A stretch of DNA of 63,371 bases, counting the filler. It is 5 parts of 5 records of this genome, joined end to end, with 100 filler letters (N's around TTAATTAATTAA, not from the genome) between each part and the next. Parts side by side here need not be neighbours in the genome. Positions count along the whole stretch, not along the records: positions 32,460 to 44,080 come from DRR723986_9670; 4 more parts are not named here. The stretch is one strand, 5' to 3'. The translations under genes and the position numbers were made by a program. Below are positions 21,316 through 44,180 of this stretch, piece after piece (within the stretch, counting starts at the first letter, position 1; every line of letters starts with the position of its first letter). The notes below the pieces were generated by a model. It had not been told where the DNA came from. It searched no databases and worked only from the letters and a program-made list of their open reading frames with translations.

Positions 21316-21335
21316 GCGAAGGGACTCGCGCGAAT

Positions 21336-21363: not shown

Positions 21364-21412
21364 TCAATTTGTCGAATCAACGGGCCGCAGATCGGCCAAG
21401 GTGAGTAAGATC

Positions 21413-23634: not shown

Positions 23635-23643
23635 GGAAGTGCC

Positions 23644-26531: not shown

Positions 26532-26549
26532 AGAAGGAACTTTCTAACC

Positions 26550-27272: not shown

Positions 27273-28645
27273 AAATCATCATCGTCGGCGCCGGGCGTGT
27301 GGGGGCCAGCCTCGCTGAAAGCCTGGTGTCCGAACACAATGACATTACCCTGATCGATCCAGACCCCAAAGTACTGGCGGATCTTCAAGACCGCTACGAC
27401 TTGCGTACCATTGCAGGCAATGGCGCTTTGCCGCGCGTGTTGAAACAGGCCGGTGCCGAGGATGCCGACATGCTGGTGGCGGTTACCCGCAGCGATGAAA
27501 CCAATTTGGTGGCTTGCCGAATGGCTGCGCTGATGTTCAATGTGCCTCGCCGAATTGCGCGTGTGCGCTCGCCCGAAATGATGGAGCAGGCCCACCTGCA
27601 TGGTGATGAAGGCTTCAATGTGGACCACGTGATTTGCCCGGAGCAAAGCGTGACCAATCACATTGAGCGCCTGATCGAATTTCCCGATGCTTTGCAGGTA
27701 CTTGATTTTGCCGATGGCAAGGTGACGCTGGTGTCAGTTCGCGCGTATGCGGGCGGGCCTTTGGTGTCGCACCCCATTGAAGACATTCGCAAGCACTTGC
27801 CCAAAGTCGATGTTCGAATTGTGGCCCTGTTTCGCGAAAACCAGCCTGTGGCGGTTGAGGGTTATACGATGATTCAACCCGGCGACGAAGTGTTTTGTTT
27901 GTCTGCCACTGAGCACGTGCGCACGGTGATGGCTGAACTTCGCCGCATGTCCAAACCCGTCACCAAAGTGATGATCGCCGGAGGCGGCAACATTGGTCTG
28001 CGCCTGGCTCGTAGCCTTGAAGACAATTACCAGGTGAAGGTGATTGATGCCGACCGCAAGCGCTGTGAAGACCTGGCGAATCAGTTGGGCTCGCGTACCC
28101 TGGTGTTGTACGGCGATGCCACCGATGAAGATTTACTGGCCGAAGAAAATGTGCAGGACGTGGACACTTTCATTGCGCTGACCAACGACGATGAAAACAA
28201 CATCATGTCGTCCTTGTTGGCCAAGCGGATGGGCGCACGCCGGGTTATTGCACTGATTCAGCGCAAGGTATATGCCGAGCTGGTGCAGGGCGGGCAAATT
28301 GACATTGCATTGGCGCCTTCGAATGCAACACTCAGTGAATTGCTCAAGCACATCCGCAGGGGTGATGTGGTGGCTGTTCACCGCTTGCGTCGCGGCGTGG
28401 CGGAAGCCATTGAAACCATTGCGCACGGCGATTCCAAGTCGTCGAAAGTGGTGGGCCGTGCCATTGAAAAAATTGACATGCCCAAGGGTGCCGTGATCGG
28501 CGCAATTGTGCGTGGTGACCAAGTCATCATGGCGCACCACGACACAGTCATTGAGGCAGAAGACCACATCATTACTTTTGTAGAAAACCGCAAACTGATA
28601 CCGCAGGTGGAAAAACTGTTCCAGGTCGGTGTGGGATTTATCTAA
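27269..28645 (+). CDS. trkA: Trk system potassium uptake regulatory subunit
   Basis: Two RCK/NAD-binding motifs (GAGRVG, GGGNIG). 458 aa. Confidence 0.96.
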   Translation: MKIIIVGAGRVGASLAESLVSEHNDITLIDPDPKVLADLQDRYDLRTIAGNGALPRVLKQAGAEDADMLVAVTRSDETNLVACRMAALMFNVPRRIARVRSPEMMEQAHLHGDEGFNVDHVICPEQSVTNHIERLIEFPDALQVLDFADGKVTLVSVRAYAGGPLVSHPIEDIRKHLPKVDVRIVALFRENQPVAVEGYTMIQPGDEVFCLSATEHVRTVMAELRRMSKPVTKVMIAGGGNIGLRLARSLEDNYQVKVIDADRKRCEDLANQLGSRTLVLYGDATDEDLLAEENVQDVDTFIALTNDDENNIMSSLLAKRMGARRVIALIQRKVYAELVQGGQIDIALAPSNATLSELLKHIRRGDVVAVHRLRRGVAEAIETIAHGDSKSSKVVGRAIEKIDMPKGAVIGAIVRGDQVIMAHHDTVIEAEDHIITFVENRKLIPQVEKLFQVGVGFI

Positions 28646-28660
28646 CGTGGCGCGTGCAGC

Positions 28661-30121
28661 ATGAGGAACTCGCTCTTTCCAGTGCTGGGTGTATTGGGCT
28701 TTGCCGTGGCGCTGTTCTCGGTGGCGTTTTTGGTGCCGCTGACTTATGCATTCGTAACCGATGAACCCACTGTGCAGGCATTTGCCACAGGTTTTTTAGT
28801 CACCTTTGGTATTGGGGTCACAGCACACGTATTAACCCGCCGCTTTCGCCGGGAACTTCAACCCAGAGACGGTTTTCTGTTGGTGTCTACGGTGTGGTCG
28901 GGTTTGCCTGCCTTTGCCACCATTCCGATGGTGCTGTTCTTTGATGATCTTAGCGTTACCGACGCCTACTTCGAGATGGTCTCTGCCATCACCACCACGG
29001 GCGCTACTGCATTAAGCGGCCTGGACAACATGCCGGACAGCATCAATATCTGGCGGCACTTGCTGTCGTGGATGGGTGGCATGGGTATCCTGGTTCTAGC
29101 GGTGGCAATCTTGCCGTTGCTGGGTGTGGGTGGATCTCAGGTGTTCAAGGCCGAGACTCCCGGCCCGATGAAAGACAGCAAATTGACCCCACGGATTACA
29201 GAGACTGCCAAGTCGTTGTACATGGTCTATCTCATGATCTCAGTTGCTTGTGTGATTAGTTACAAGCTTGCGGGCATGGGCTGGCTGGACGCATTCCTTT
29301 ACACGGGGACTACAGTTTCCCTCTCAGGAATGGCGGCGCATGACAGCAGTTACATGTATTTTGATTCGGCTTCAATCGAGATGGTCGCTGTGGGGTTCAT
29401 GATGATCGCTGCAGTGAACTTCTCCATCCACTTTTTAGCCTGGCGTGGAAAATCGTTTCGTCCGTATGCCAATTGCCCGGAAGCGAAGTGGTTTTTCCTG
29501 CTGATGTTTGGATCGGTGACGTTGATCACCATGTATTTGTTGGCGCATCAGGAATACACCACTTTCAGCGAAGCATTTCGGTTCGCACTTTTCAATACAG
29601 TGTCAGTGGCCACTACGACAGGTTTCGCGAACACTGATTATTCCAAATGGCCACTTTTCGCGCCCCTACTCATGATCTTCATGAGTATGTTTGCGACTGC
29701 CGCGGGGTCGACTGGTGGTGGCATCAAGATGCTACGTGCGGTCATTCTGTTCAAGCATGCGATTGGCGAGTTGTCGCGTATTCTTCATCCCCGTGCAATC
29801 AACCCGGTGCGCATTCGAGGTTCGGCAGTGAGCTCGCAGGTGATTTTCGGTGTGCTCGCATTCATGCTGATGTATGGCATGAGTGTGATCACCATCACCA
29901 TGTTGTTGATATTTACAGGCCTTGATCCAATTTCTGCGCTAACCACGGGTATCTCAATGATCAACAACCTTGGCCCAGCGTTGGGTCAATTTGGCCCTGT
30001 GGACAACTATGCCGCTCTAGGTGACTTTCAAACCTGGCTTTGTTCATTTGCCATGTTGCTCGGTCGCCTGGAAATGTTCACCATCTTGGTGCTGTTCACG
30101 CCAGCGTTCTGGCGCAAATGA
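28661..30121 (+). CDS. trkH: Trk system potassium uptake membrane protein
   Basis: Pore loops TTTGA, TTTGF, GSTGGGIK, NNLGP, and LLGRLE. Confidence 0.96.
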   Translation: MRNSLFPVLGVLGFAVALFSVAFLVPLTYAFVTDEPTVQAFATGFLVTFGIGVTAHVLTRRFRRELQPRDGFLLVSTVWSGLPAFATIPMVLFFDDLSVTDAYFEMVSAITTTGATALSGLDNMPDSINIWRHLLSWMGGMGILVLAVAILPLLGVGGSQVFKAETPGPMKDSKLTPRITETAKSLYMVYLMISVACVISYKLAGMGWLDAFLYTGTTVSLSGMAAHDSSYMYFDSASIEMVAVGFMMIAAVNFSIHFLAWRGKSFRPYANCPEAKWFFLLMFGSVTLITMYLLAHQEYTTFSEAFRFALFNTVSVATTTGFANTDYSKWPLFAPLLMIFMSMFATAAGSTGGGIKMLRAVILFKHAIGELSRILHPRAINPVRIRGSAVSSQVIFGVLAFMLMYGMSVITITMLLIFTGLDPISALTTGISMINNLGPALGQFGPVDNYAALGDFQTWLCSFAMLLGRLEMFTILVLFTPAFWRK

Positions 30122-30525
30122 AAACGCGGCTTTTTCTGGTGCCTGGCCGCGACCCGGAAGCACGAGCCCGGCGAATTGAAGCACTGCTTTCCGAGCAGGC
30201 TGGCGTTGGCAAGATTACCTTGATGGCCAGTACCGAGATTTTTTCCTACGCATCAGTGGAGGCTCAGGCAGAGTTGTTCCGTCTGGACTCTGAGCGCAAA
30301 GCGCGCGGTATTCACGTGCTGCGCTTAAGTCCCGGTTGCTTGTGTTGTTCCTCCAAATTGGTGCTGACAACTCACCTAGCTCGCACCTTAAGATTGAATC
30401 AACCCAATGTATTGTTAATGGAACTGGAAAGCCAAAGCCACCCGGAACAGGTGTTACAGTTATTAAAAGAGCCTCAATGGAGTGACTGGTTTGCCGATAT
30501 AACACTTGTGGAGGATGTTGCGTAA
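30118..30525 (+). CDS. Short CobW/COG0523-like protein retaining GCLCC but lacking Walker A
   Basis: ATGA-coupled to the trkH stop. LSPGCLCCSS..L...L..LR...P..LLMELE...HP resembles the YeiR/YjiA middle segment. Confidence 0.65.
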   Translation: MKTRLFLVPGRDPEARARRIEALLSEQAGVGKITLMASTEIFSYASVEAQAELFRLDSERKARGIHVLRLSPGCLCCSSKLVLTTHLARTLRLNQPNVLLMELESQSHPEQVLQLLKEPQWSDWFADITLVEDVA

Positions 30526-30549
30526 GGGGTTAGACGCCCAAGGCGTGGC

Positions 30550-30577
30550 CTTGAAATTGCTAGATAGATCACCATAT
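30550..30577 (+). promoter_or_regulatory. Sigma32 (RpoH)-type promoter
   Basis: CTTGAAA-N13-CACCATAT, close to the CTTGAAA-N13/14-CCCCATnT consensus, 31 bp before the DUF3567 start. Confidence 0.65.
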
Positions 30578-30608
30578 TCAACCTGAAAGTATTATTTGGA
30601 GGTTTGCG

Positions 30609-30857
30609 ATGTTAATGATGATTGATAGCCCCTTTTACTGCGTGGTGGATTTGGTCATGAGCGAGGGGCAACCCAGCCTTGGCATTGAAATCGTGGACAA
30701 GAACAATCAGCGCGAACTGTTTTTGCAGGGCGACGCGGCTGAAAAATTCCGCGAAGAGGTGAAATACCTTGCCGCCCAAGAACCCGATATCGACGACATC
30801 GAAGCTTTTATTGAAAGCTACAAACCCTGGATGCAACACCCGGTTACGTTGCACTGA
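30609..30857 (+). CDS. DUF3567 (BTH_I0359-like) protein
   Basis: GIEIVDK..RELFL.G..AE.FR..V and C-terminal PVTLH. SD GGAGG. Confidence 0.85.
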   Translation: MLMMIDSPFYCVVDLVMSEGQPSLGIEIVDKNNQRELFLQGDAAEKFREEVKYLAAQEPDIDDIEAFIESYKPWMQHPVTLH

Positions 30858-30913
30858 ACGTGTCTTGAAAATGCCTCTGCTGTTCTGGCAGAGGCCACCT
30901 TCTCAATCCCAAT

Positions 30914-32200
30914 TCAAGCGAATCTTGGTTTGGCGTGAGTTTCGCGGCTCAACATCAAACTGACAATTGACGAGCCCACCCACACAGCAAGTACCAGCAT
31001 GCACACAGTCATGCCAGCTTTTGAATAAGCACCGGTGATGTTTTCCACGGCTGCATAGTGGTCAAGAATCGCACCCAGTACAGGCTGCTGCACCAGTGGG
31101 CCGACCATGACACCCAGGTTCACAATGCCCACTGCGGTAGCACCCAAATGGTGGGGCACCGACTCCTTCACGTAACCGAAGCTCAGCACCATGGAGCCAC
31201 CCCCAAAGGCCGTGATCCACAACAAAACCGACACCAGTGAAATCGGAAGTTCAGGTTGAATACCCAAAATGATGAAGCCACTGATCGACAAAACCGCGCC
31301 TATAAAATAGGGCAGTTTGCGCTGCTTGAGCTTGTCGGAAAGCGCACCAAAAAACAGGCTGCCAGCGGCAAAGGCGATCAGCATGCCGGTGATAATCAGT
31401 GAGGCCTCTTTCACGCTGAGCCCATGCCAGGTGGTGAGGTAGGGCACACCCCACAGGCCGGTGAACGTTAGAATTGCACCGCAAACACCACTGGGAATCC
31501 AGAAAATCAACCACACCGCAGGAAAGCGAAGTGTGTGGCCCAAAGCGGTAAGCAATGGCAAGGTGACTTCATTGGCGGGGCGTTTGGCCACGTGGTTTTT
31601 GTAGCCGCGCTGCGAGGGCATGTCGCGAACATAAATCCAGATCAGCAGGCCCAGTGCCACGGCAATCATTCCACTGGCGCCCATGACCATGCGCCAGCCA
31701 AACAAATCGGAAAGTGCACGCAAGGGCACGCCTGCCAGTACGGCACCCATGGTGCCCACGGCCAGGCTGACACCGGACATGCTGGCGAAACGCGCCGGCG
31801 AAAACCACTGGGCCACCAACATCAGCATGGACACCCAGGCCACTGCAACCGAGCCACCCACCAAGCCGCGACCCACTGCCGCCCAACCCAGGGTGGGTGC
31901 AAAGCCGAACATGAGAGCACCCATACCGCCGAGCATACAGCCCGCAGTCAGAATTTTGCGCGGACCAATTCGATCGACCAACAGCCCCACAGGTATTTGC
32001 ATGGCTGCGTAAAAGTAGAAGTAAAACGCAGAGAGGTTGCCTAGTGCTGCGCGGCTGAGGTCGAACGTGGTGCTGAGTTCCTCGGTGAGTACGCCAGGTG
32101 TAACGCGCTGAAAGAAACCGAACAGGTAAAACGCGGCTGCCAGGCCCCAGATGATGAACGACATCCGCAGGGGGGGCGGGGAAAGGTGATTGGGCGACAT
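30914..32200 (-). CDS. MFS transporter
   Basis: About 12 TM segments with MFS motifs GLLVDRIGPRK and GALSDKLKQRK. Start placed at ATG 32200. Confidence 0.92.
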   Translation of the reverse strand: MSPNHLSPPPLRMSFIIWGLAAAFYLFGFFQRVTPGVLTEELSTTFDLSRAALGNLSAFYFYFYAAMQIPVGLLVDRIGPRKILTAGCMLGGMGALMFGFAPTLGWAAVGRGLVGGSVAVAWVSMLMLVAQWFSPARFASMSGVSLAVGTMGAVLAGVPLRALSDLFGWRMVMGASGMIAVALGLLIWIYVRDMPSQRGYKNHVAKRPANEVTLPLLTALGHTLRFPAVWLIFWIPSGVCGAILTFTGLWGVPYLTTWHGLSVKEASLIITGMLIAFAAGSLFFGALSDKLKQRKLPYFIGAVLSISGFIILGIQPELPISLVSVLLWITAFGGGSMVLSFGYVKESVPHHLGATAVGIVNLGVMVGPLVQQPVLGAILDHYAAVENITGAYSKAGMTVCMLVLAVWVGSSIVSLMLSRETHAKPRFA

Positions 32201-32359
32201 GGTGTTGTTCTTGTGGTGACTGCAGGCAGTGTCGCATGTGGGCGCGCTTGTGCCACTTGGGTGTAACCCGAGTGGTCTCTTGCTCAACTCGGCGTGGGTT
32301 CCTTGTGTCGCACAGGGCTGGTGATTGGGGAGCTGAACTTGAAGGGTCACCGCTGCCCG

Positions 32360-32459
32360 NNNNNNNNNNNNNNNNNNNNNNNNNNNNNNNNNNNNNNNNN
32401 NNNTTAATTAATTAANNNNNNNNNNNNNNNNNNNNNNNNNNNNNNNNNNNNNNNNNNNN
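32360..32459. other. Artificial contig-joining spacer
   Basis: 44 N + TTAATTAATTAA + 44 N. Confidence 0.99.
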
Positions 32460-33472
32460 CCGTAATATGCGGGCCAGCTGGCGCCGTAACCGGGGTAGAA
32501 AGCGTCATAAACATCGCGGGTAAAATATTCGAATCCGAATTTATCGAACCATTTTGCGTTGGTTTTACCGAATAAGAAAAGCGAATCACGTTGGTTTTTG
32601 GCTAAATGCGGATTAAAGGGGATGGCTTCGGGCGCAAAATAATATGTCGAGTTGCCGCCCATTTCGTGCAGATCAACATAAACCAGAGGATACCATTCCT
32701 GCAGGGCCTTCACATGGCCTTGGGTTTCAGGCTGGGTTAGGGAGATATAATCCCGGTTCATATCGAACAAATAATGGTTGGTACGCCCAGAAGGCCAAGG
32801 TTCATTGTGCTCTGCTGAGGCGGGGTCACTATCTGCTTCCAAGCCTTTTGCTGTGCGGAAGCGGTGAATAAAGCGGTCTCGGCCATCCGGGTTTTGCAGT
32901 GGATTAATAAAAACAATGCTTTGATCAAGAATATCAGGGACACGATCATCACCGCGCGCCGCAAGTAGGTGATAAGCTGTCATCATTGCGGCATCGGTAG
33001 ATGAAATTTCATTGCCGTGAATACTGTAGGCAAGCCACGTAGATGAGGGCATGTCATTGATTAGCTGCGCGGCGTCTGCATCTGAAGTAACGCGTGGGTC
33101 ACTAAGGGCTTTCATGCCTGCTTTAAAGGTGTCGAGGCGCGCGATATTGGCTTCACTTGAGATCGCGATATAGATCAAATCCCGGCCTTCCCAGGACTGG
33201 CCGTATTTCATGATGCGCATTTTACCGGGTGCTTTTGCGGCCAACGCTTCCATGTAACGGCGCATGTCACCGTGTGTGGTGATACGCTGTCCTGAACTAT
33301 AGCCCAGCACATCCTTTACGGTTGGAATTTCGGGGTTGTAGTTTGCGCCGGGCCAAAAATATTCGTTTTCCGGATTGCTAGAAATGCTCGCGCTTTGTGC
33401 AAATGAAACCACGCTTGCAGCGGCAAGTGCAAACGAAAGCATTAGTGCGGATACTGTGCGGATAATAGACAT
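32460..33472 (-). CDS. M14 family zinc carboxypeptidase, secreted, 3'-truncated
   Basis: Signal peptide. YSIHGNE, QNPDGR, DMNRD, DLHEMG. Confidence 0.92.
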
Positions 33473-33747
33473 GGACCCCTCCCAAATAAGGTGCAGCAGA
33501 TAAAATGCAGGACTTAGTTCAATAAAGTTAAATCACGCGCTTGAAAACCCCAGAAGAATAACTTATCCGTGCGCCTTAAATAAAGCCGATGCTGGGGTTC
33601 AAAAAAATGCTGTTAGTTTCGCTTGATTTTTAAAAGTCATGCCCTTATGGTGCGCGCCTTGATTTGAGGTGTTCACTAGTTGGTGGGCACCGTTATTTTG
33701 CCCGGCGGCCATTATTGCAGGCACCGGCGAGTGATAAGGTAAGTAAA

Positions 33748-33933
33748 ATGGCAGTTCCAAAGAGTAAGATATCCCCGTCTCGCCGTGGTATGCGTCGTTC
33801 GCATGATGCGCTGAAAGCTGTAAACTATCAGGAAGACACACACACTGGTGAGTTCAAGCTGCGTCATCACATAGACCTGAAAACAGGCATGTATCGCGGT
33901 AAACAGATTATTGAGCCAAAAGGCGACTACTAA
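33748..33933 (+). CDS. rpmF: 50S ribosomal protein L32 (cysteine-free form)
   Basis: [30 protein letters not shown]. Start ATG 33748. Confidence 0.97.
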
Positions 33934-34049
33934 GCCTTAACGCTTAATAGTTTATAAATTTAAAGGCGTTTCCCTTGGAAGCGCCTTTTTTATTGCGCAA
34001 TTTACCGCTATCTTCAAATAACACTCAAACTATGGATACGGAGAGACTG

Positions 34050-34820
34050 ATGATAAAGAATACCTTAAGTGTTCTGGCGTTATTGATTTTGACGGCGTGT
34101 ATGGCCGAAAATTCGGTTACAGGTCGTTCACAATTTATCATCATTCCACCCAGTCAAGATTCGGCGCTAGGGCTGGAGGCGCTGAATGAAGTTAAGAAAA
34201 CTGCTCCTGTTGTTACCACAGGCCGTATGGCTGATCGTGTGCAGCGCATCGGCCGTAGGATTGCCGCCATATCAGACAAGCCTGACATGGACTGGGAATT
34301 TATCGTTATCGATGAACCAATACTAAACGCTTGGGCATTGCCGGGTGGTAAAGTGGCAGTATACCGTAAAATGCTTGATAACTTGAACGACCAGCAACTG
34401 GCTGCTGTTTTAGGGCATGAGGTTGCACACGCTGTACTCAGACACGGCGCAGAGCAAATGAGCCGCGCACAGGCGCAAAATATGGCGATCATCGGCCTTG
34501 GTGTTTTAGTAAGCAGCCAGACAGAAGACCAGCAAACTGCTCAAATGGCAATCGGGCTAGGTGCCTTGGCCGCGCAAGGTTTTGTGTCACTTCCCCACAG
34601 CCGCAAAATGGAGCTGGAAGCAGACCATATTGGTACCATTTACATGGCAAAAGCCGGTTATGATCCGCGCAATGCGGTGACACTTTGGCAAAAAATGGCA
34701 AGCCTTAAAGAAGGCGGTGGTGGCCAGCCGACATTTCTGTCGACCCATCCAGCAGACGATAAGCGTATTGGCAGGCTTTCGGCGCGAATGGACGAATATC
34801 TGGAGTACTATCGAAAGTAA
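34050..34820 (+). CDS. M48 family metallopeptidase lipoprotein
   Basis: Lipobox LTAC, NAWALPGGK, HEVAH, SRKMELEAD, FLSTHP. Confidence 0.93.
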   Translation: MIKNTLSVLALLILTACMAENSVTGRSQFIIIPPSQDSALGLEALNEVKKTAPVVTTGRMADRVQRIGRRIAAISDKPDMDWEFIVIDEPILNAWALPGGKVAVYRKMLDNLNDQQLAAVLGHEVAHAVLRHGAEQMSRAQAQNMAIIGLGVLVSSQTEDQQTAQMAIGLGALAAQGFVSLPHSRKMELEADHIGTIYMAKAGYDPRNAVTLWQKMASLKEGGGGQPTFLSTHPADDKRIGRLSARMDEYLEYYRK

Positions 34821-34827
34821 GGGCTAT

Positions 34828-35670
34828 TTAACTGCCATAGTCCAGTCCAATATCAACTGCGTGCGCCGACTGGGTGAGCCTGCCGACAGATATATAATCA
34901 ACGCCGGTTTCCGCAATTGCGCGAATGCTATTGAGCGTAACACCGCCAGACGCCTCGCAAGGTATTCGGCCCGCAACAATTTTCAGGGCTTTACGTAAAA
35001 CATCAGGCGGCATGTTATCGAGCAGCAAGCTTGTGGCGCCAGCTTCAACCGCCTCGGCAACTTGTTCTAGCGTGTCGCACTCAACTTGAACTTTTTGGTG
35101 GCCTGCAGATACAGCGCTTGTAACCGCATTTGCGACAGACCCAGCAACAGCAATATGGTTATCTTTGATCATGACAGCATCAAAAAGCCCCATACGGTGA
35201 TTATGCGCCCCGCCGCACGCTGCTGCATATTTGCCAAGCACTCTCAGGCCCGGAATGGTTTTGCGTGTATCAAGTAATTTGGCGTTTGTGCCTTCTATTG
35301 CCGTCGCATAGCGCTGCGTTAGAGTTGCAATACCGGAAAGATGCTGCAGTATATTCAGTGCCGTACGCTCCGCCGACAAAAGCGCCTGCGCCGCGCCCGA
35401 TATTATGGCAATTTTATCGTCCGCGGCTAAATGGTCGCCGTCTTGTGCGTAAAAGATGACCTGCGCATTTGAATCCAACCTGCGGAAAATTGGTTCTATG
35501 AGTGGCAAGCCGGATAGAACCATTGCTTCCCGCGCATTCATTGCCGCAGTCAGCTTTGCATTTGGCGGGATAACAGAGTTGGCAGTGATATCGCCAAATC
35601 CAATGTCCTCAGCAAATGCGCTATCAATGAAAGCATCTATTTCGGCATTATTAAGGGGAAAATCCGTCAC
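34828..35670 (-). CDS. nadC: Quinolinate phosphoribosyltransferase
   Basis: ED.G.GDIT, DTRKTIPG, MIKDNH, LLLDN, EASGG. Confidence 0.97.
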   Translation of the reverse strand: MTDFPLNNAEIDAFIDSAFAEDIGFGDITANSVIPPNAKLTAAMNAREAMVLSGLPLIEPIFRRLDSNAQVIFYAQDGDHLAADDKIAIISGAAQALLSAERTALNILQHLSGIATLTQRYATAIEGTNAKLLDTRKTIPGLRVLGKYAAACGGAHNHRMGLFDAVMIKDNHIAVAGSVANAVTSAVSAGHQKVQVECDTLEQVAEAVEAGATSLLLDNMPPDVLRKALKIVAGRIPCEASGGVTLNSIRAIAETGVDYISVGRLTQSAHAVDIGLDYGS

Positions 35671-35688
35671 TGCTGTATGCCTGAACAG

Positions 35689-36684
35689 TTAAGCAATTTC
35701 TGACACGTCTTTTGACGGGCCTGCAGTTGGACTCATTTCCAGCATTTTCCGGAGCGGCTTTTCTGCCGCAACGCGGGTTGCTTCGTCCAAATCGATCTCT
35801 GGGCCCAAGTCCCGAAGGCACATGAACAGTTTTTGCATAGTGTTCAGCGCCATATACGGGCAGGTGTTGCAGCCACAGTTGCCGTCTGCGCCGGGTGCAC
35901 CAATGAATGTTTTGTGCGGTGCAGCTTTTTCCATTTGGTGAATAATGCCAGGCTCGGTAGCAATAATCAGGGTGTCTGCTTCGCTTTCAAGGGCATATTT
36001 TAAAATTGAGCTTGTCGAACCAGCATGATCTGCATGCTGGATAATGGCATCAGGGCATTCCGGGTGCGCCAGCACAGGCGCATCAGGGTTTTTTGCCTTC
36101 AGCTTTATCAATTCTTTTTCGCTGAACAGCTCATGCACAATACATGTGCCTTGCCACAAAAGCATGTCGCGGTTCAATTTGCGGGAAAGATAGCCACCCA
36201 AATGCCGGTCCGGTGCGAAGATAATCTTTTGGTCTTCCGGAATTTGGCGCACAATATGCTCAGCGTTAGAACTGGTGACAATTATATCGGTTAAAGCTTT
36301 AACGGCAGCGGAGCAGTTAATGTAACTAAGCACCATATGGTCAGGGTGCGCCTTGACAAATTTTTCAAATTCTTCGGGAGGACAACTGTCCTCTAAGCTG
36401 CAACCAGCAGCCAGGTCAGGGAGTACTACGGTTTTTTCTGGGCTTAGAATTTTGGCCACTTCCGCCATGAAGCGCACACCGCAAAAAACGATGACATCGG
36501 CATCGGTTTCAGCCGCCTTGCGGGAAAGGTCCAGGCTATCGCCAACAAAGTCAGCAATGTCCTGAATTTCAGGCGCTTGATAATAATGCGCCAAAATGAC
36601 AGCATTTTTCTCTTCGCGCAGGCGCTTGATTTCAGCAACAAGGTCGAGCGTTGGGTCAACCGTTGATTTGGACATCAAATTCAT
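35689..36684 (-). CDS. nadA: Quinolinate synthase
   Basis: [34 protein letters not shown]. Confidence 0.97.
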
Positions 36685-36816
36685 AAAACTCTCCGAAGCA
36701 CTCCAATTAGGAGCTTTTTAGAGCCCGCTTCCGGGGATACAAAGTTTAGTGCGGCATATTTACAGGGACGAACGCTGAAGTGCAATCAAGGATTTTTTGC
36801 AGGCACATGACGAAAA

Positions 36817-37734
36817 CTAAGCCGCCTTATAGCGCGCATTAAGGGTGGTATCTCCATCACAGTTTACTCTGCCATCGTCGGTCATGGCTATTAAATGCGC
36901 CAAAACTGACCGTGCAGCTGCCGGATGTAGCCGTTTGTCGACACTCTTATACATATGCGAAACCAACTCCTCTATGGTTTCACTGCCACCTTTGAGGTGA
37001 TCTAAAATTTGGCCTTCACGCATTTTCCTGTGCGTGATTATGCCGCGGATGAAAGAGTTAGGCTTATCAACCCAAGGGCCGTGTGTTGGCGCAAGCATAG
37101 TTGGTTCAAGCGCCGCTACTTTTTTCAGGCTTTCAATATAATCTTTCATATCACCGTCTGGCGGCGAAATAACAGTTGTTGCCCATCCCATAATATGGTC
37201 GCCGACAAATAGCGTGTTTTCTTCTTTCAGTAAAAAACACAGGTGATTGGCGGTATGGCCAGGTGTGTGAATGGTCTTAATGGTCCAACCATCTCCTGAA
37301 AGCGTGTCGCCGTCGCGCAGTATTTTATCTGGTGCAAATAGCTTGTCTGCGCCCGCTTCAACTTCTTCCTCGACAAGCCCGCCCCGCCGTCCTGTACCGT
37401 GGGCCCCATATCCATACACGGTCGCACCGGTTTTGTCCTTCAACCAACCAGAAAGCGGCGAGTGGTCTTGGTGGGTGTGAGTAACCAAAATGAATTTGAG
37501 GCATTTGCCGTCAAGGGCTTTCAGCAGTGCTTCCCCGTGGCGTGGCATGTCTGGGCCAGGGTCTATAAGGGCGGCATCGGTCCCGTTACCAATAATATAG
37601 GTGCCGGTACCGGTGTAGGTATAGGGACTGGGGTTTTCGCAAAGCACACGCGTTACCAGTGCAGACATTTTTTCTGCCGTCCGATAGTTTGCTGTGAAGT
37701 CTTGTTGAAACTTTGGGTTTTCTTCGGAAGCCAC
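36817..37734 (-). CDS. MBL-fold metallo-hydrolase (LACTB2-like, C-terminal winged helix)
   Basis: NPSPYT..GT, THTHQDH, HTPGHT.NH, GDHIMGW, PTHGP. Confidence 0.93.
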   Translation of the reverse strand: MASEENPKFQQDFTANYRTAEKMSALVTRVLCENPSPYTYTGTGTYIIGNGTDAALIDPGPDMPRHGEALLKALDGKCLKFILVTHTHQDHSPLSGWLKDKTGATVYGYGAHGTGRRGGLVEEEVEAGADKLFAPDKILRDGDTLSGDGWTIKTIHTPGHTANHLCFLLKEENTLFVGDHIMGWATTVISPPDGDMKDYIESLKKVAALEPTMLAPTHGPWVDKPNSFIRGIITHRKMREGQILDHLKGGSETIEELVSHMYKSVDKRLHPAAARSVLAHLIAMTDDGRVNCDGDTTLNARYKAA

Positions 37735-37787
37735 CGGTCACCTTTTTGTTGTTGCGTTCTTAACATGGTAGCAAAATTTGGGAATGC

Positions 37788-37847
37788 AAAAAGAAAAACC
37801 GGCGTTGCCTCGGTGGAATGGGAAAGAGGGCAACGCCGGTTTTTTTT
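37788..37847. terminator. Bidirectional intrinsic terminator with large loop
   Basis: AAAAACCGGCGTTGCC..GGCAACGCCGGTTTTT inverted repeat with A/T runs on both sides. Confidence 0.85.
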
Positions 37848-37943
37848 ATGGTGAATATGGTCCACTTGGCAGCAGGATCATATTATTTCAGGTGGTTTCG
37901 GGTTTTGGTGGCAGCCAGAGGTCCCAAAGCATTGCACCTTGTG
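37788..37943 (-). ncRNA. Candidate sigma54-dependent small RNA (~155 nt)
   Basis: Bounded by a -24/-12 promoter and a long intrinsic terminator. Three stem-loops, two of them carrying GCUGCCA. No substantial ORF. Confidence 0.6.
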
Positions 37944-37954
37944 CTATCTCTATC

Positions 37955-37970
37955 GCAACAGGCATGCCAA
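37955..37970 (-). promoter_or_regulatory. Sigma54 (RpoN) -24/-12 promoter
   Basis: Minus strand TTGGCATGCCTGTTGC gives GG-N10-GC, one mismatch to TGGCAC-N5-TTGC. Confidence 0.75.
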
Positions 37971-37986
37971 TTAATATAGTATTTAA

Positions 37987-37999
37987 AAACAATAACTTA
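37987..37999. promoter_or_regulatory. IHF binding site
   Basis: AAACAATAACTTA vs consensus WATCAANNNNTTR (1 mismatch), in AT-rich DNA about 45-55 bp upstream of the predicted sigma54 start. Confidence 0.6.
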
Positions 38000-38065
38000 A
38001 AAATTTTATCTGCTCAATTGTCCCAAAAAAACACAGGCATTGTTATGGAAAACCTTCATTGCGTA

Positions 38066-38878
38066 TCATTGCGGGACAGGTGGTAAAAAACCAAGCTTTT
38101 GCAATATGGTCATGGCAGTTTCGCTTAAAAGCCATTGTTGAAAGCTCCTGGCCGCTACATTTGCTTCGCTAGGGTCTTTGCGCGGAATCATGGCGATATA
38201 GTCAATTGATGGATAACTGGAAACTGGCAGTTGCATTACCTCGCAGGCGAGGGCGCTTTTATGGGCATCAGTGGCATAAACGAACCCCGGCAAGCCGCCG
38301 CGTTCGGTCAATAATAGGGCAAGTCGGACATTGCCAGCGTATGCGGCGTTTTTTGCGGCATCGCTCCAAATTGATAGGTGTTCAAGTGCTTGTTTTGTGT
38401 AGTCACCTGCTGGCGAAACGCGCGGGTCTGCCATTGCAAACCGCCTTGATGCAAGAAGATGTTTGAGCGCATCAGGTGTTTTCAGGTCTGGTAAGGTCAC
38501 CATTTGGCTGCAGGGCCAAACCATACTAATATGATTTGTTGCGATAATGACATTATCACCATCTGCGAATCCAATATTTGTTAGATGTGTAATCCATTTG
38601 CGGTTAGCCGATATAAACAAGTCAGCTTGAGCACCGGCCTCAATTTGTCGGGCAATGACACCGCTGGCACCGAGGGAAATTCGTGTTTGGACGCTGCCGG
38701 GTTGTGCCTGCCATGCTTCGGTCAGAAGTTGCAAAGAATCAGCCAGGCTCGCAGCAGCGAAGATAGTAATCGGGTCTTGAGGCTTAGAGTTTTTTTGCTC
38801 TGACGCATTGCCCATCTGAGAGCACAAGCATACGGCGGCGGCGAGCAGTATATTTTTAACAGCTACCCTAATAGGCAC
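38066..38878 (-). CDS. modA: Molybdate ABC transporter substrate-binding protein
   Basis: ITIFAAASL, GASGVIARQIEAGAQADLFISAN, PAGDY, FVYATDA. Start uncertain, GTG 38878 overlapping the ispB stop was chosen. Confidence 0.85.
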   Translation of the reverse strand: MPIRVAVKNILLAAAVCLCSQMGNASEQKNSKPQDPITIFAAASLADSLQLLTEAWQAQPGSVQTRISLGASGVIARQIEAGAQADLFISANRKWITHLTNIGFADGDNVIIATNHISMVWPCSQMVTLPDLKTPDALKHLLASRRFAMADPRVSPAGDYTKQALEHLSIWSDAAKNAAYAGNVRLALLLTERGGLPGFVYATDAHKSALACEVMQLPVSSYPSIDYIAMIPRKDPSEANVAARSFQQWLLSETAMTILQKLGFLPPVPQ

Positions 38879-39911
38879 GGTCGATGCAGAAATCAACAAC
38901 ATCAAGCATGGCAGTTTTTGCACTATTATCGTCAAAAATTGCCAACGCATCTTTTGCCATTTCTCCATAGTGGCGCGCTCTGTCCACTGTTGCCGAAAGG
39001 GTACCATACTTTTGCAGTGTCGCTAGTGCAGTGGGCAGATCATCTTCTGTTTGCCGCACTGCTTGCATTGTCCTTTTCCAGAACTCCCGCTCTTCCTCGG
39101 TGCCGCGCCTGTAGGCAAGGATAACAGGAAGGGTAATTTTGCCTTCCCGGAAGTCATCTCCGGTATTTTTCCCCATAGTCGCGCGTTTGGACGAATAATC
39201 CATCGCATCGTCTATAAGCTGGAAAGCAATACCAAGATTGCGGCCGTATGCTTCCAGCGCTGAAATTACATCTTCGTTGCGATCTGCCACCACACCTGCA
39301 ACTTCGCAAGCAGCAGCAAAAAGAACTGCAGTTTTCGCAGTGATAACTTCCAAATATTTTTCTTCGGTGGTCGAAAGGTCATTGGCAGTTGTCAGCTGTA
39401 ACACTTCGCCTTCTGTAATAACTGAAGAAGCTGATGATAATATTTTAAGAACACGAAGGCTGTCGCTTTTCACCATCAATTCAAATGCTCGGCTGAACAG
39501 AAAGTCTCCCACGAGAACCGTTGGCTGGTTGCCATAAATGAGGTTGGCGGTTTTTTTGCCGCGGCGCAGAGTGCTTTCGTCCACCACATCGTCGTGCAAC
39601 AGGGTTGCTGTATGAATAAATTCAACGGCCGTGGCCAAGCCGATGTGTCGCGTGCCGTCGTATCCAATCAATTTGGCAGAGGCGAGCGTTAACATGGGCC
39701 GCAAACGTTTGCCACCTGAAGAGATAAGATGGCCTGCCAAGTCAGGAATCAGTGATACGGGGCTTTGCATGCGCGAAAGAATGGTTTCGTTCACCAACGC
39801 CATATCAGCATCTGTCAGCTTTTGCAGTTGATCAATTGCTGTTTGTTCGTCGGTGCTCGAAGTTCTACCGTGAATTGAAACCACATTATCGGGCCGATTA
39901 ATGTCGGACAT
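38868..39911 (-). CDS. ispB: Polyprenyl (octa/decaprenyl) diphosphate synthase
   Basis: GGKRLRP, LLHDDVVD..RRG, FQLIDD, GDDFREGK. Confidence 0.94.
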   Translation of the reverse strand: MSDINRPDNVVSIHGRTSSTDEQTAIDQLQKLTDADMALVNETILSRMQSPVSLIPDLAGHLISSGGKRLRPMLTLASAKLIGYDGTRHIGLATAVEFIHTATLLHDDVVDESTLRRGKKTANLIYGNQPTVLVGDFLFSRAFELMVKSDSLRVLKILSSASSVITEGEVLQLTTANDLSTTEEKYLEVITAKTAVLFAAACEVAGVVADRNEDVISALEAYGRNLGIAFQLIDDAMDYSSKRATMGKNTGDDFREGKITLPVILAYRRGTEEEREFWKRTMQAVRQTEDDLPTALATLQKYGTLSATVDRARHYGEMAKDALAIFDDNSAKTAMLDVVDFCIDRAY

Positions 39912-40111
39912 GGAATACCCCAAATAAATACTCTAAAATCATTCATTGTGCCGCCAGCATGAAAACCCAAGTAGCTGACTACAATAAGAGACTAGTAACG
40001 GACTGCGGTGAATTCAAGACTTCAGAGGCTTAGATATCGTGCCCGCGTCATTTGACCGCAATCGGATTTGTCGTACAATCACCTTGTATCAGCGGGAAAG
40101 CAACTAAACTT

Positions 40112-40900
40112 ATGGTAATAGGCGATCACGAAGACGTTGACGGTTTGGAGCAGAGCCCGGCTAAGGGCGCTGATACCACGATTGACGACTTTTTAGGTGG
40201 TGCAATACGTTTAATCCAACCAAAAGACGGGTACCGCGTCTCTATGGACACCGTCATGCTCGCCGCAACTGTTCCGGCAAAGCCCGGGGAAACAGTGTTG
40301 GAAGCCGGGGTTGGTTCTGCAGGTGCAGCCTTGTGTTTGGCAAGGCGTTTACCGGGTGTGCATGTTTTTGGTGTTGATATACAGCCATCAATGATTGAGC
40401 TGGCCCGGCAGAATATTAGTTGTAACGATCTTAGTGACTTTGTCTCGGTAGGGCGCGGATGTGTGACTGAACGAACCGGCCCGGAAGCGACATATGATCA
40501 TGTGATGATCAACCCACCGTATTTAGCTAAGGGTAAAGCCATAAGGCCGCCTGAGGCCAACAAGGGCCTAGCGCATATGGATTCTGCCGCAACGCTGGCG
40601 GACTGGATAAAATTTAGCATATACAATGTGAAAAACCGGGGCACGGTCTCAATTGTCTATCGTGCGGACCGAATTGATGAGGTCATCTCTCATCTGTACC
40701 GGCGGGTGGGTGATTTGAAAATTCTACCCCTTTGGCCGCGTGCGGGCGTTGCGGCAAAGCGTGTGATTATTCAAGGGCGCAAGGGCGTCCACGGGGCTGC
40801 ACAGTTGCTGCCCGGCCTTGCATTGCACGGTGAGGTTGACAGATATACTGCTGAGGCGAGGAAAATCCTGTGGGACGGTGCACCACTGCCACTGGAGTAG
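40112..40900 (+). CDS. tRNA1(Val) adenine(37)-N6 methyltransferase family (YfiC/TrmN6-like)
   Basis: FLGG...L.QP..GYR..D, LEAGVGSG, NPPY. Divergent from ispB as is usual in Alphaproteobacteria. Confidence 0.85.
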   Translation: MVIGDHEDVDGLEQSPAKGADTTIDDFLGGAIRLIQPKDGYRVSMDTVMLAATVPAKPGETVLEAGVGSAGAALCLARRLPGVHVFGVDIQPSMIELARQNISCNDLSDFVSVGRGCVTERTGPEATYDHVMINPPYLAKGKAIRPPEANKGLAHMDSAATLADWIKFSIYNVKNRGTVSIVYRADRIDEVISHLYRRVGDLKILPLWPRAGVAAKRVIIQGRKGVHGAAQLLPGLALHGEVDRYTAEARKILWDGAPLPLE

Positions 40901-41045
40901 GTGAAAACATTCTATTAGTGCTGCAAATTGAGTAAAAGCCTTTGCGAGAACGCGACAAAGCAGTTAATCACAGGCAAATCGGATAAAAGGCCAGTATACA
41001 CTGGCGAATAGTATAGCGAATGAATCAGCTAAATAAGGACTATCA

Positions 41046-41927
41046 ATGGCGGGTAAACTAGGCAAATTTCTGTTTAAAGTGCGACGGTCTATATTTGGGG
41101 ACCCGCCGCCACGCGTCTCTGTGTTGCCGCTATACGGCGTTATTGCGGCTGGTGGGCGTTTCAAACAGGCGGTTAATATGGCCAGCTATGCTGAGCGCAT
41201 TGAAGAAGCTTTTTCTGCGCCCGGTTTGTCTGCCGTTGCGCTAATGATTAACTCGCCTGGCGGCTCACCGGTGCAATCGGCCCTTATTACCAAGCGAATC
41301 CGAGATTTGGCCGCAGAAAAAAACGTGCCGGTTATCGCCTTTGCTGAAGATGTGGCGGCGTCGGGCGGCTATATGTTGGCGCTTGCGGGTGATGAAATTT
41401 ACGCGAACGAATCGTCATTGATAGGCAGCATCGGTGTTGTATCATCTGGCTTTGGCTTCACTGAGGCTATTGCAAAAATTGGTGTGGAGCGCAGGCTATA
41501 CACAGCGGGCGAAAGCAAATCCATGTTGGATAGCTTCTCGGAAGAAAAACCGGAAGACGTTGCTCGCTTGAAAGAAATGCAAACTGAAATTCATGAGCAT
41601 TTCAAGAAAATGGTCCGTGATCGACGCGGCAAACGCTTAAAGGGCCTGCGCGGCAAAATATTTTCAGGCGAAGTTTTCACCGGCCCTGAGGCCGTGAAGC
41701 ACGGCCTGATTGACGATATTGGCGATATGCGCACCGTCATGCGGGAGCGGTTCGGTAAAGACGTGAAGTTCGATGTGTTAAGCGAGAAAAAGTCGCGTTT
41801 TGGTTCACTGCTGGGGCTGAAACACGGTCATGACCTGCAGGCCGGTTTAGGTGGCCTTGCGGACCTGCCACATGCCACTATTTCTGCTGTGGAAGAGCGG
41901 CTAATTTGGAATAAATATGGGCTTTAA
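41046..41927 (+). CDS. S49 family peptidase (SppA-like)
   Basis: INSPGGSPVQS, DVAASGGY, GSIGV. Confidence 0.93.
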   Translation: MAGKLGKFLFKVRRSIFGDPPPRVSVLPLYGVIAAGGRFKQAVNMASYAERIEEAFSAPGLSAVALMINSPGGSPVQSALITKRIRDLAAEKNVPVIAFAEDVAASGGYMLALAGDEIYANESSLIGSIGVVSSGFGFTEAIAKIGVERRLYTAGESKSMLDSFSEEKPEDVARLKEMQTEIHEHFKKMVRDRRGKRLKGLRGKIFSGEVFTGPEAVKHGLIDDIGDMRTVMRERFGKDVKFDVLSEKKSRFGSLLGLKHGHDLQAGLGGLADLPHATISAVEERLIWNKYGL

Positions 41928-41953
41928 GTGAGCGCAAGAAGAGGACGTATCCG

Positions 41954-42256
41954 GTGGATCAAAAACATAAAGCCCAATTACAAGCTTACCGTGAAAGCAT
42001 TGATAACATTGATGCATCGCTGGTTTTTATGCTCGCCGAGCGTTTTAAAATTACCAAAGCTGTTGGTTTCTATAAAAAAGAACATGACCTGCCACCGGCC
42101 GACCCTGGCCGCGAGCAAGAACAGGTTGCCCGGCTGCGTGCATTAGCCAAAAGCGCCAATCTGGACCCAGAATTCAGCGAAAAGTTTCTGAATTTTATCA
42201 TTCGTGAAGTTATCCAGCACCATGAACGCATCCGAGAACAAGGTGACCTGACATGA
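41954..42256 (+). CDS. Chorismate mutase (AroQ-type, stand-alone)
   Basis: RESIDNID..L.ERF..T..VG..K, DP.RE..Q..RLR. Confidence 0.92.
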   Translation: MDQKHKAQLQAYRESIDNIDASLVFMLAERFKITKAVGFYKKEHDLPPADPGREQEQVARLRALAKSANLDPEFSEKFLNFIIREVIQHHERIREQGDLT

Positions 42257-42993
42257 CCGTTGATGGACCCGAACAGCTGGAGAAACTGCGCGAAATAGGC
42301 GCCATATGCCGAGATGTTTTGCGCGCAATGGCTGCAAAAATTGCCCCCGGTGTTACACCGCGTGCGCTGGATGATATGGCGGGCAAAATGCTGAAAGAGC
42401 GCGGCGCGCAGTCTGCCCCTATTTTGGCCTATGACTTCCCCGGTCATACATGCATTTCAGTGGGCGACGCCATTGCGCACGGTATTCCGTCTGACATCCC
42501 CCTCAAGGAAGGCGAACTGATTAATATTGATGTTTCCGCAGAAAAAGACGGCTTTTTCGGTGACACTGGTGCCAGTTTCCCCGTGGGTAATGTGTCTGAT
42601 GAATTGAAAAACCTGCTTAAGGCCACCGAGGCAGCTCAGCGCAAGGCTATGTTTGCCGCACGCGCGGGCCAGCCAGTGAATGTTGTCGGCAAGGCGGTTG
42701 AGCGCGAAGCGAAAAAGCATGGGCTGAAAATTATTGAAGGTTTAAATGGTCACGGCGTCGGGGCGTGGATTCACGAAGACCCGTCTGTGCCTAACATTTA
42801 TTACCCTAGCGAGCGCACCCGCCTCAAGGAAGGTCAGGTCATTACTATTGAGCCGTTTTTGGCCACCAAAAGCCACCAATATGCAGAAGACGAAGATGGT
42901 TGGACACTGCGTTTGGCGCAGGGCGGATACGGCGCGCAGTTTGAGCATACATTTATGGTCACCAAAGGTGCGCCAGTTGTCTTTACCAATTAA
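42253..42993 (+). CDS. map: Methionine aminopeptidase type I
   Basis: CISV...AHGIP, NIDVS, GDTG, GHGVG..HE.P, TIEP, QFEHT. Confidence 0.95.
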   Translation: MTVDGPEQLEKLREIGAICRDVLRAMAAKIAPGVTPRALDDMAGKMLKERGAQSAPILAYDFPGHTCISVGDAIAHGIPSDIPLKEGELINIDVSAEKDGFFGDTGASFPVGNVSDELKNLLKATEAAQRKAMFAARAGQPVNVVGKAVEREAKKHGLKIIEGLNGHGVGAWIHEDPSVPNIYYPSERTRLKEGQVITIEPFLATKSHQYAEDEDGWTLRLAQGGYGAQFEHTFMVTKGAPVVFTN

Positions 42994-43127
42994 GCTGATT
43001 TTTATGAGGAAAACAGGCGCATTAAACTGGGTTTACGCCAACCTTGGCAAAGCTTTCTTGACCGTCCGCAGGCATCCCGCTAGGTTGCCTCAAATTCAGC
43101 CAATCCCAAACGCTTGAAACCATTGAA

Positions 43128-44027
43128 ATGACTCAAACTTCTGCGCCTTCACAACCCAACGCACCATCGGCTATGCCGTTTCAGAAAATGATCCTGACTT
43201 TGCAGAATTATTGGGCTGATCATGGCTGTGCAATTTTGCAGCCTTATGACCTTGAAATGGGCGCAGGCACTTTTCACCCGGCAACCACGCTCAGGGCTTT
43301 GGGCCCAGAGGCTTGGAAAGCCGCCTACGTGCAGCCTTGTCGCCGCCCAACCGATGGCCGCTACGGTGAAAACCCTAATCGTTTGCAGCATTATTACCAG
43401 TTTCAGGTGATTTTGAAGCCAAGCCCGGCGAACATGCAGGAGCTGTATCTGGGCAGCCTTAAAGCCATTGGTATTGACGCCGCGCTCCATGACATTCGTT
43501 TTGTTGAGGACGACTGGGAAAGCCCGACGCTGGGCGCTTGGGGCCTTGGCTGGGAAGTGTGGTGCGACGGCATGGAAGTGAGCCAGTACACCTATTTCCA
43601 GCAGGTGGGCGGCATTGAATGCAAGCCGGTTTCCGGCGAGCTTACATATGGGCTGGAACGCTTGGCCATGTTCGTTCAGGGCGTCGATAACGTTTATGAC
43701 CTGGATTTCAACGGTGCGGGTATCTCGTATGGCGATGTGTATTTGGAAAACGAGCGCGAGCAGTCTGCCTATAACTTTGAGCATGCCGACACCGACAAAT
43801 TGTTTGAAGACTTCAAAAAAGCACAAGACGAATGCGCCAAGTTGCTTGAGGCCGAGTTGCCGCTGCCTGCTTACGAGCAGTGCATTAAATCAAGTCACAC
43901 TTTCAATATGTTAGACGCGCGCGGGGTTATTTCGGTAACCGAGCGGCAGGCTTATATTGGCCGTGTGCGAGATCTGGCGAAGGGCTGCTGTGCGGCCTGG
44001 ATTAAAAAGAACGGGTGGGACATATAA
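43128..44027 (+). CDS. glyQ: Glycine--tRNA ligase alpha subunit
   Basis: [35 protein letters not shown]. Confidence 0.98.
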
Positions 44028-44080
44028 TGGCCGACCTGCTGATTGAATTATTTTCCGAGGAAATCCCGGCGCGCATGCAG
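44027..44080 (+). CDS. glyS: Glycine--tRNA ligase beta subunit, N-terminal fragment
   Basis: [18 protein letters not shown] overlapping the glyQ stop, cut by the contig end. Confidence 0.9.
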
Positions 44081-44180
44081 NNNNNNNNNNNNNNNNNNNN
44101 NNNNNNNNNNNNNNNNNNNNNNNNTTAATTAATTAANNNNNNNNNNNNNNNNNNNNNNNNNNNNNNNNNNNNNNNNNNNN
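44081..44180. other. Artificial contig-joining spacer
   Basis: 44 N + TTAATTAATTAA + 44 N. Confidence 0.99.

Follow-up and report, generated by a model that had tools for sequence, protein, structure and literature searches.

A predicted sigma-54-controlled small RNA with conserved CUGCCA loops in Kordiimonas-type Alphaproteobacteria

The detailed comparison of an intergenic spacer with its counterparts in related genomes can reveal regulatory units that a single sequence does not establish. In this study, we have explored a spacer in a 63,371-nt stretch of assembled DNA (the window), which is read on the minus strand and is flanked by a solute-binding-protein gene (38066-39007, PF13531) and a gene for a metallo-beta-lactamase (MBL)-fold hydrolase (36817-37668/37734, PF00753 and PF17778). 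We argue that this spacer probably holds a conserved, free-standing gene for a regulatory RNA, sRNA1, with a length of about 155 nt. In an alphaproteobacterium of the Kordiimonas family, this RNA would be under sigma-54 and enhancer control and would have a sister small RNA, sRNA2. What our comparisons demonstrate is a conserved unit, predicted to be terminated and non-coding, in which the loop motifs are under purifying selection while the stems drift. A sequence-only reading of the window had placed here an enhancer-like site, a site resembling that of integration host factor (IHF), a -24/-12 element, GCUGCCA loops and a terminator, and we recovered each of them in its expected place on the minus strand. 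In the following list, enhancer-type sites, or upstream activating sequences (UAS), carry the score of a position weight matrix (PWM) that was derived from the sites of the sRNA1 loci.

38019..38035, strand unassigned: proximal UAS TGTGTTTTTTTGGGACA, of the form TGT-N11-ACA (PWM 15.8; family motif TGTnYCA-WWW-TGRnACA)
37987..37999, minus strand: IHF-like site TAAGTTATTGTTT, read from the sequence, within an A/T-rich stretch
37955..37970, minus strand: -24/-12 promoter of sigma-54 type, TTGGCATGCCTGTTGC (pattern match, conserved in homologues)
37788..37945, minus strand: predicted sRNA1, about 155 nt, with a 5' end predicted from promoter geometry and a 3' end predicted from the terminator U-run
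37890..37939, minus strand: stem-loop 1 (SL1), with GGCUGCCACC at its tip and a hexaloop CUGCCA closed by GG/CC (fold and covariation)
37854..37884, minus strand: stem-loop 2 (SL2), with GCUGCCA in its loop (fold and homologue hairpins)
37795..37844, minus strand: stem-loop 3 (SL3), an intrinsic terminator whose conserved C/U-rich loop is CUCUUUCCCAUUCCACC and behind which a U-run extends to 37788
38062..38078, minus strand: weak distal site TGTCCCGCAATGATACG of enhancer type, which overlaps the stop codon of the solute-binding-protein gene upstream (PWM 9.6)

Within the window, the -24 GG and the -12 GC of the promoter stand at their fixed spacing (TGGCATGCCTGTTGC, 37969-37955), the IHF-like site has a single mismatch to the IHF consensus YAANNNNTTGATW, and the proximal UAS is the sole site with a PWM score of at least 12. 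The promoter pattern alone is at chance level (the window has one match where 0.66 are expected, and 53 of 100 shuffles contain one or more); as such a match is not significant, the case rests on comparison with other genomes. The predicted RNA carries its two GCUGCCA loop motifs at 37915-37909 and 37873-37867, and its terminator combines a G+C-rich stem of 15-16 bp with the run U5CU5 that ends at 37788. The folding energy of the 161-nt RNA is -51.1 kcal/mol against a shuffle mean of -35.1 (z = -4.2), and none of 200 shuffles folded as low. The structured small RNA that had been proposed for the spacer is thus supported by its fold, and also by the conservation of the unit and its structure in relatives. 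Neither a gene for an enhancer-binding protein nor a copy of sRNA2 was found in the window.

Relatives were first found through the MBL protein, the closest being an uncultured Kordiimonas (70%) and Pseudokordiimonas caeni (61%). Both carry the whole unit between equivalent flanking genes, and it is absent from the remaining 78 of 80 MBL loci of other genomes. A pattern search through 151 genomes of the order that contains Kordiimonas returned 17 places, of which 15 were the unit and two were chance matches. With a covariance model built from 14 sequences (R1), we then obtained one match per genome in 33 of the 45 genomes of the Kordiimonas and Pseudokordiimonas family, 32 of them full length; on the window, the same model matches 37786-37934 with 115 bits (E = 2e-24). 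The conservation in relatives that the earlier reading had proposed to look for therefore exists, as enhancer, IHF-like site, promoter, three hairpins and terminator are kept together in these 33 genomes. The binding-protein gene lies 5' of sRNA1 in 24 of 32 loci. In Pseudokordiimonas, the unit has three GCUGCCAC hairpins rather than two, and the terminator loop contains extra CUGCC repeats. Between the terminator and the start of the MBL gene there is another conserved block, in the window (37758-37789) as in its homologues; one subgroup has TTGCATTCC..N..CCATGTTAGA there, the other ..GGTTTAG...

The pattern of substitutions follows the proposed structure. Across SL1 and the terminator in the 14-sequence alignment, pairing extends to 94.2% of cells, and compensatory changes occur at 16 of the 26 pairs. 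The covariation score of 0.540 is reached by none of 500 shuffles, which score 0.281, and drops to 0.08-0.15 once the partners are slid by one to three columns. Compensatory changes affect six of the eight outer pairs of SL1 and 10 of the 16 pairs of SL3, where 98.2% of cells are paired, so that both stem-loops are backed by covariation. The GGCUGCCACC columns of SL1 are invariant in all 14 aligned sequences; three distant members lack this motif in SL1 and keep it in SL2. Differences in stem length prevent a single-register alignment of SL2. Each of the 27 homologues folded nevertheless has a hairpin tipped by CUGCCA, on quite different stems, and in the 3-bp helix closing this hexaloop all three pairs have compensatory changes (0 of 500 shuffles reach its score). 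Both GGCUGCCACC and GCUGCCA are thus retained in the loops, and the terminator loop is also conserved within each subgroup, as CCCUUUCCCAAUUCCACC or GCCCCACCUCAAUCCGC. We had considered that the loops might mimic the anticodon loop of tRNA-Gly(GCC); this idea was dropped because the closing helix leaves a loop of six bases, not seven.

The promoter region is conserved with the RNA. The element TGGCAY-N5-(T/C)TGC is found at the same position in all 33 homologues, except that two of them have TTGA, and 28 of the 33 loci carry between one and three TGT-N11-ACA sites, 44 in all. Counted from the TGGCA box, these sites are phased at about -114, -89/-98 and -68/-77, and, as the family motif indicates, their position 4 is not conserved. 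A relaxed IHF pattern (YAA-N4-TTG-W-W-W, at most 70 nt upstream of the promoter) occurs in 24 of the 33 loci. All five carrier genomes tested contain rpoN, and carrier relatives have 7-10 strong PF00158 genes per genome. Throughout a genome the strict UAS pattern is rare (0-6 sites, and almost none for a reversed control). In the relative G425 there are three strict sites, every one of them at the two small-RNA genes, and among 21 further sigma-54 consensus promoters of this genome only that of sRNA2 has a UAS while the other 20 have none. A combined promoter and UAS pattern proved too strict for the family, with 23 matches in 14 of 45 genomes. Based on these observations, which agree with the control by sigma-54 and an enhancer-binding protein first suggested for this RNA, we infer that a predicted activator would bind the 17-bp palindromes, with an IHF-type site lying between them and the promoter.

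The search for enhancer sites also brought to light the putative sister RNA. In G425, the sole strict UAS outside the sRNA1 locus precedes a second sigma-54 promoter and a predicted RNA of about 125 nt, sRNA2, whose two hairpins present UUUUGCCUGAG (loop motif UUGCCUGAG) and which ends in a canonical terminator; genes for a DUF2336 protein and an acyltransferase lie on either side. The loci of sRNA2 include L203/L248 (G425:C1:427259-427470), L227, L220 and at least 20 others; the sRNA2 pattern is present in most genomes of the family, including several that lack sRNA1, and a second model, R2, run on 151 genomes that sample the order, found a single copy in each of 35, of which three lie outside the family. 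sRNA2 is thus more widespread than sRNA1. At least one UAS with a PWM score of 12 or more lies within 170 nt upstream in 24 of 26 sRNA2-pattern loci, with one such site elsewhere in the remaining 68.7 kb; since the matrix came from sRNA1, this test of the sRNA2 enhancer is independent. An IHF-like YAA-N4-TTGA-W-W was found in 18 of the 26 loci. In some sRNA1 genes, UUGCCUGA has been added or replaces the second GCUGCCA. As these genes carry the sRNA2 motif, the two RNAs look like siblings, common descent being unproven. In the stretch seen of one species (L218, G534:C25), sRNA2 is enlarged to three UUGCCUGAG hairpins.

Which protein would activate these promoters? G425 encodes nine strong enhancer-binding proteins, of which NCBIfam names FlbD, NtrC, NtrX and PspF; the remainder are two LuxO-like proteins and three unnamed ones. 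One of the latter, EBP173, combines a receiver domain with a GSFTGA-containing AAA+ domain and a helix-turn-helix (HTH) of Fis type; it is encoded by an orphan gene that has a pntA-like gene on one side and a racemase gene on the other. In 29 of the 30 family loci, the sequence TGTCCTGAAA(T/C)GATACA is found 39-80 nt upstream of the EBP173 start codon, with only two other PWM matches in the 122 kb of these loci, and no UAS-type site was found at the LuxO-like, NtrC, FlbD, EBP185 and EBP194 loci. Autoregulation is common among enhancer-binding proteins, and for this reason EBP173, with the motif before its own gene, is taken as the best candidate; it is the most likely activator of sRNA1 and sRNA2 that these comparisons suggest. 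EBP173 shares 53.6% identity over 487 aa with its best match in Caulobacter zeae, the one enhancer-binding protein there that is not FlbD, NtrX or NtrC, and the two proteins have in common GSFTGA and an identical recognition-helix stretch of the HTH, EVARRLGIGRSTLYRK. The enhancer-binding proteins that Caulobacter is reported to encode are NtrC, NtrX, FlbD and TacA (10.1101/2023.06.06.543975). Taken with the identity of the C. zeae match, this repertoire suggests that EBP173 is probably the orthologue of TacA. Term searches of PMC7010744 and of 10.1101/2023.06.06.543975 returned no published TacA DNA motif.

The palindrome is also seen outside the small-RNA genes. A perfect TGTnTCA-N3-TGAnACA lies just 3' of flgE in four of nine genomes of the genus of C. 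zeae (L372-L377), and in a fifth genome of this genus the palindrome precedes a flagellin gene by about 190 nt. In the Pseudokordiimonas genome G426, additional enhancer-type sites adjoin two PAS_5 genes and a gene for an HTH regulator of XRE type (L211, L212, L213). These are possible protein-coding members of the regulon, which, judging from such sites, is not confined to small RNAs everywhere.

In the mechanism that we propose, an activator, likely EBP173, would bind the 17-bp palindromes and, with an IHF-type site in between, would drive the sigma-54 promoter of sRNA1. The transcript would present CUGCCA on two hairpins, followed by a strong terminator hairpin with a conserved loop. By analogy with other multi-hairpin small RNAs, sRNA1 most likely acts in trans, its conserved loops serving as pairing seeds for mRNAs, and its terminator and U-tail would suit binding by Hfq. 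The exact complement of the SL1 loop, GGTGGCAGCC, shows some enrichment, with 126 matches in five genomes against 52 for a reversed control; among 30 of these sites that were inspected, 26 lie within open reading frames (ORFs) and one falls on a ribosome-binding site (L369).

Several observations weigh against this reading. No conserved target emerged, as none of the 30 inspected complement sites, out of 126 in the five genomes, was seen in more than one genome. The MBL gene lies 3' of sRNA1 in 30 of 32 loci, starting about 105-130 nt past it, and in one subgroup the U-run does not follow the terminator stem immediately but begins a few bases beyond it. The assignment of EBP173 to TacA was made by elimination. 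EBP173 and its own site are kept in G531 and G546, where neither small RNA was detected; what these two genomes lack instead is a LuxO-like regulator. Finally, the position of the palindrome beside hook or flagellin genes in five of nine Caulobacter genomes could point to FlbD.

A different choice of activator can be argued, although we regard it as rather unlikely: an orphan LuxO-like protein (LuxO-A), in a circuit of Qrr type, or else NtrC or FlbD, would take the place of EBP173. LuxO-A was our favoured candidate initially. In NCBIfam, it is matched best by the model for LuxO (608 bits, with a cut-off of 800), it occurs in 43 of 45 family genomes, and 34 of the 35 sRNA2-positive genomes of the order have a LuxO-like protein. 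Moreover, G531 and G546, which lack LuxO-A, gave no R1 match and no convincing match to the sRNA2 pattern, the single match in G546 spanning an atypical 62 nt, when searched with R1 and this pattern. LuxO-A was downgraded on the evidence of the LuxO box, of missing UAS sites and of distribution. The promoter of an operon for H-NOX, a kinase and a second LuxO-like regulator (LuxO-B) has three classic TTGCA-N3-TGCAA boxes, which differ from the small-RNA UAS beside the CA/TG core; four LuxO-A loci have no UAS; and LuxO-like proteins occur in 64 of the 151 genomes of the order, 30 of which have no sRNA2 match. As to feedback pairing, no clear complementarity to the loops was visible by eye in three LuxO-A upstream regions. 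The geometry of the UAS equals that of the NtrC site TGCACCA-N3-TGGTGCA, but the other 20 sigma-54 promoters of G425 have no UAS and neither does its ntrC locus. As for FlbD, to which the Caulobacter palindromes lend some weight, the flagellin sigma-54 promoter of G425 has no PWM match of 7 or more and carries CGGCAA-N3-TTGCCG palindromes, a motif found in just one of 33 sRNA1 upstream regions. NtrC and FlbD are therefore unlikely activators, and EBP173 is retained as the candidate.

Two further observations concern the LuxO-like proteins themselves. The operon mentioned above (L214, G425:C2:326000-342000, and L253) encodes H-NOX, a hybrid histidine kinase (GAF-HisKA-HATPase-REC-Hpt) and a LuxO-like regulator under its own sigma-54 promoter, and is reminiscent of the nitric-oxide branch in the quorum sensing of Vibrio, here in an alphaproteobacterial setting. 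A distance of about 5-6 kb consistently separates the orphan LuxO-like gene from rpoN, in G425 (G425:C2:479788-486529) and likewise in G481, G426, G505 and G522.

A second alternative keeps the promoter and changes the role of the RNA. sRNA1 could be a cis-acting leader, in which the sigma-54 promoter serves the MBL gene and the terminator gates read-through, perhaps via a factor that binds CUGCCA. The tight linkage to the MBL gene and the displaced U-run of one subgroup leave some room for such a read-through or leader role, which we nonetheless consider unlikely. In the window and its close relatives, the long G+C-rich stem of the terminator is combined with its U-run, and the conserved block before the MBL start is possibly the own promoter of that gene, judging by its appearance. 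In addition, the unit is present at just two of the 80 MBL loci from other genomes; of the two sRNA1 loci with no MBL gene recorded downstream, one is at a contig edge and the other (L160) has sRNA1 without this gene. sRNA2, which is of equivalent design, precedes an unrelated acyltransferase gene and ends in a canonical terminator.

Still less likely, in our view, is that sRNA1 acts as a decoy whose CUGCCA loops titrate either an RNA-binding protein or some other RNA, in the manner of CsrB/RsmZ or GlmY. Such a role would fit an identical motif at the tips of two hairpins (three of them in Pseudokordiimonas) with freely drifting stems, the additional CUGCC repeats in the Pseudokordiimonas terminator loop, the extra UUGCCUGAG hairpins of the L218 sRNA2, and the lack of a conserved complementary target among the sites inspected. 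Against it, we know of no protein that recognises CUGCCA, and two copies are few for a sponge. The pairing of sRNA1 with sRNA2 gave duplex energies no better than those of shuffled controls in nine genome pairs, and the conserved 10-nt GGCUGCCACC and the 17-nt terminator loop would suit seed regions equally well. Lastly, the 14-codon ORF that the sequence-only reading had offered as its alternative is present in the window (37932-37888, peptide MLWDLWLPPKPETT), but that the transcript codes for this 14-residue peptide is scarcely credible, given that an ATG ORF of at least eight codons is missing from 13 of 33 homologues, that the remainder give unrelated peptides in other frames, and that conservation tracks base pairs and loops, not codons.

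Returning to sRNA1 as a free-standing regulatory RNA, we asked how it relates to known families. Rfam 15 gave no match at gathering score in the 63,371-nt window or in six homologous loci (18,497 nt), which upholds the first impression that it belongs to no known family; with E up to 10, there was terminator-like noise, the best being STnc240 on the opposite strand (31.5 bits, cut-off 55), and no Qrr. The family thus appears to be new, while RNAs of its kind, driven by sigma-54, are already known. The Qrr1-5/LuxO system of Vibrio is similar in having sibling small RNAs with sigma-54 promoters and upstream sites for one NtrC-family response regulator, the RNAs being rich in hairpins and ending in a terminator, and in G425 the strict sites are likewise restricted to small-RNA genes. 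The differences are that sRNA1 has no Rfam match to Qrr, that its UAS reads YCA...TGR and not GCA...TGC as in the LuxO box (TTGCAW3TGCAA), boxes of the latter type being found at the H-NOX operon instead, and that the host is an alphaproteobacterium with a regulator likely resembling TacA rather than LuxO. GlmY/GlmZ under GlrR (QseF) offer another parallel, with two related RNAs, up to three TGT...ACA sites, an IHF site and a sigma-54 promoter, and here too one member could be a decoy. The sites of the present family are 17 bp long against 18 bp for the GlrR site TGTC-N10-GACA, there is no Rfam match, and no link to glmS was seen.

NrsZ of Pseudomonas, which depends on NtrC and sigma-54, is built of repeated similar stem-loops and in this respect resembles sRNA1, but there is no homology, and the lack of a UAS at the other sigma-54 promoters of G425 speaks against NtrC. 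ANTAR leaders consist of two hairpins whose hexaloops have A1 and G4, the second overlapping a terminator; the hexaloop of sRNA1 is CUGCCA and its motif hairpins do not overlap the terminator. Within the same bacterial class, the Caulobacter class III/IV flagellar genes require sigma-54, IHF and FlbD (PMC3096577), and their promoters share the three-part layout of enhancer, IHF site and sigma-54 promoter. With the TacA regulon, the likeness lies in the recognition-helix region, which EBP173 shares with the Caulobacter protein that we take to be TacA. The products here are predicted small RNAs, unlike the flagellar or stalk proteins of those systems, and the flagellin promoters of the Kordiimonas family carry another palindrome. 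The portions of the literature covered mention no Kordiimonas RNA of this sort and no TacA-dependent small RNA (PMC12559287, PMC7010744, PMC4287350).

The make-up of the window bears on the identity of the host. It consists of five contigs joined by N44-TTAATTAATTAA-N44 linkers (20657-20756, 32360-32459, 44081-44180 and 55075-55174), and sRNA1 lies in the contig 32460-44080. The contig 20757-32359 is 99-100% identical to G001, a genome of a different and very large order, from which the contig 32460-44080 is absent. With one contig like G001 and another like Kordiimonas, the assembly looks mixed, sRNA1 being in the Kordiimonas-like part. A BLAST search of the spacer against 41 genomes around G001 returned only two short partial matches, in G028 and, over 24 nt, in G013 of the genus of G001; a pattern search in the order of G001 gave noise (unrelated matches in 61 of 401 genomes); and no MBL protein was found in 26 genomes of its genus at E up to 1e-40. 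The match in G028, which is of another order, is a sigma-54 promoter with a near-identical core and flank (TTGGCATACCCGTTGCGATAGAG) before a protein-coding gene (L001, 1520-1550). At the end of the G001-like contig (about 32275-32359), we also noted a repeat of about 85 nt with many copies in G001 (78-94% identity), which looks like a repetitive extragenic palindromic element or a miniature inverted-repeat transposable element.

In a wider perspective, the TacA relay of Caulobacter is driven by cyclic di-GMP (c-di-GMP) through ShkA, and in Gammaproteobacteria small RNAs that depend on sigma-54, among them Qrr, GlmY/Z, CrcZ and NrsZ, serve as central switches; in the literature searched, we found no such RNA described for this alphaproteobacterial group. 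We put forward, as a tentative possibility, that in non-stalked bacteria of the Kordiimonas type the main output of a TacA-type phosphorelay might be a pair of sibling sigma-54 small RNAs, a circuit like that of Qrr and LuxO which would have arisen independently in Alphaproteobacteria, with the CUGCCA and UUGCCUGAG loops acting as seeds or as protein-binding sites. Our results provide two candidate small-RNA genes, a 17-bp enhancer motif and a named candidate regulator, in marine bacteria that can be cultivated. The interest of the system would grow if the link to TacA and an output made up mostly of small RNAs were true. In that case, the phosphorelay that serves the cell cycle and c-di-GMP signaling in Caulobacter would be tied to post-transcriptional control in its stalkless relatives.

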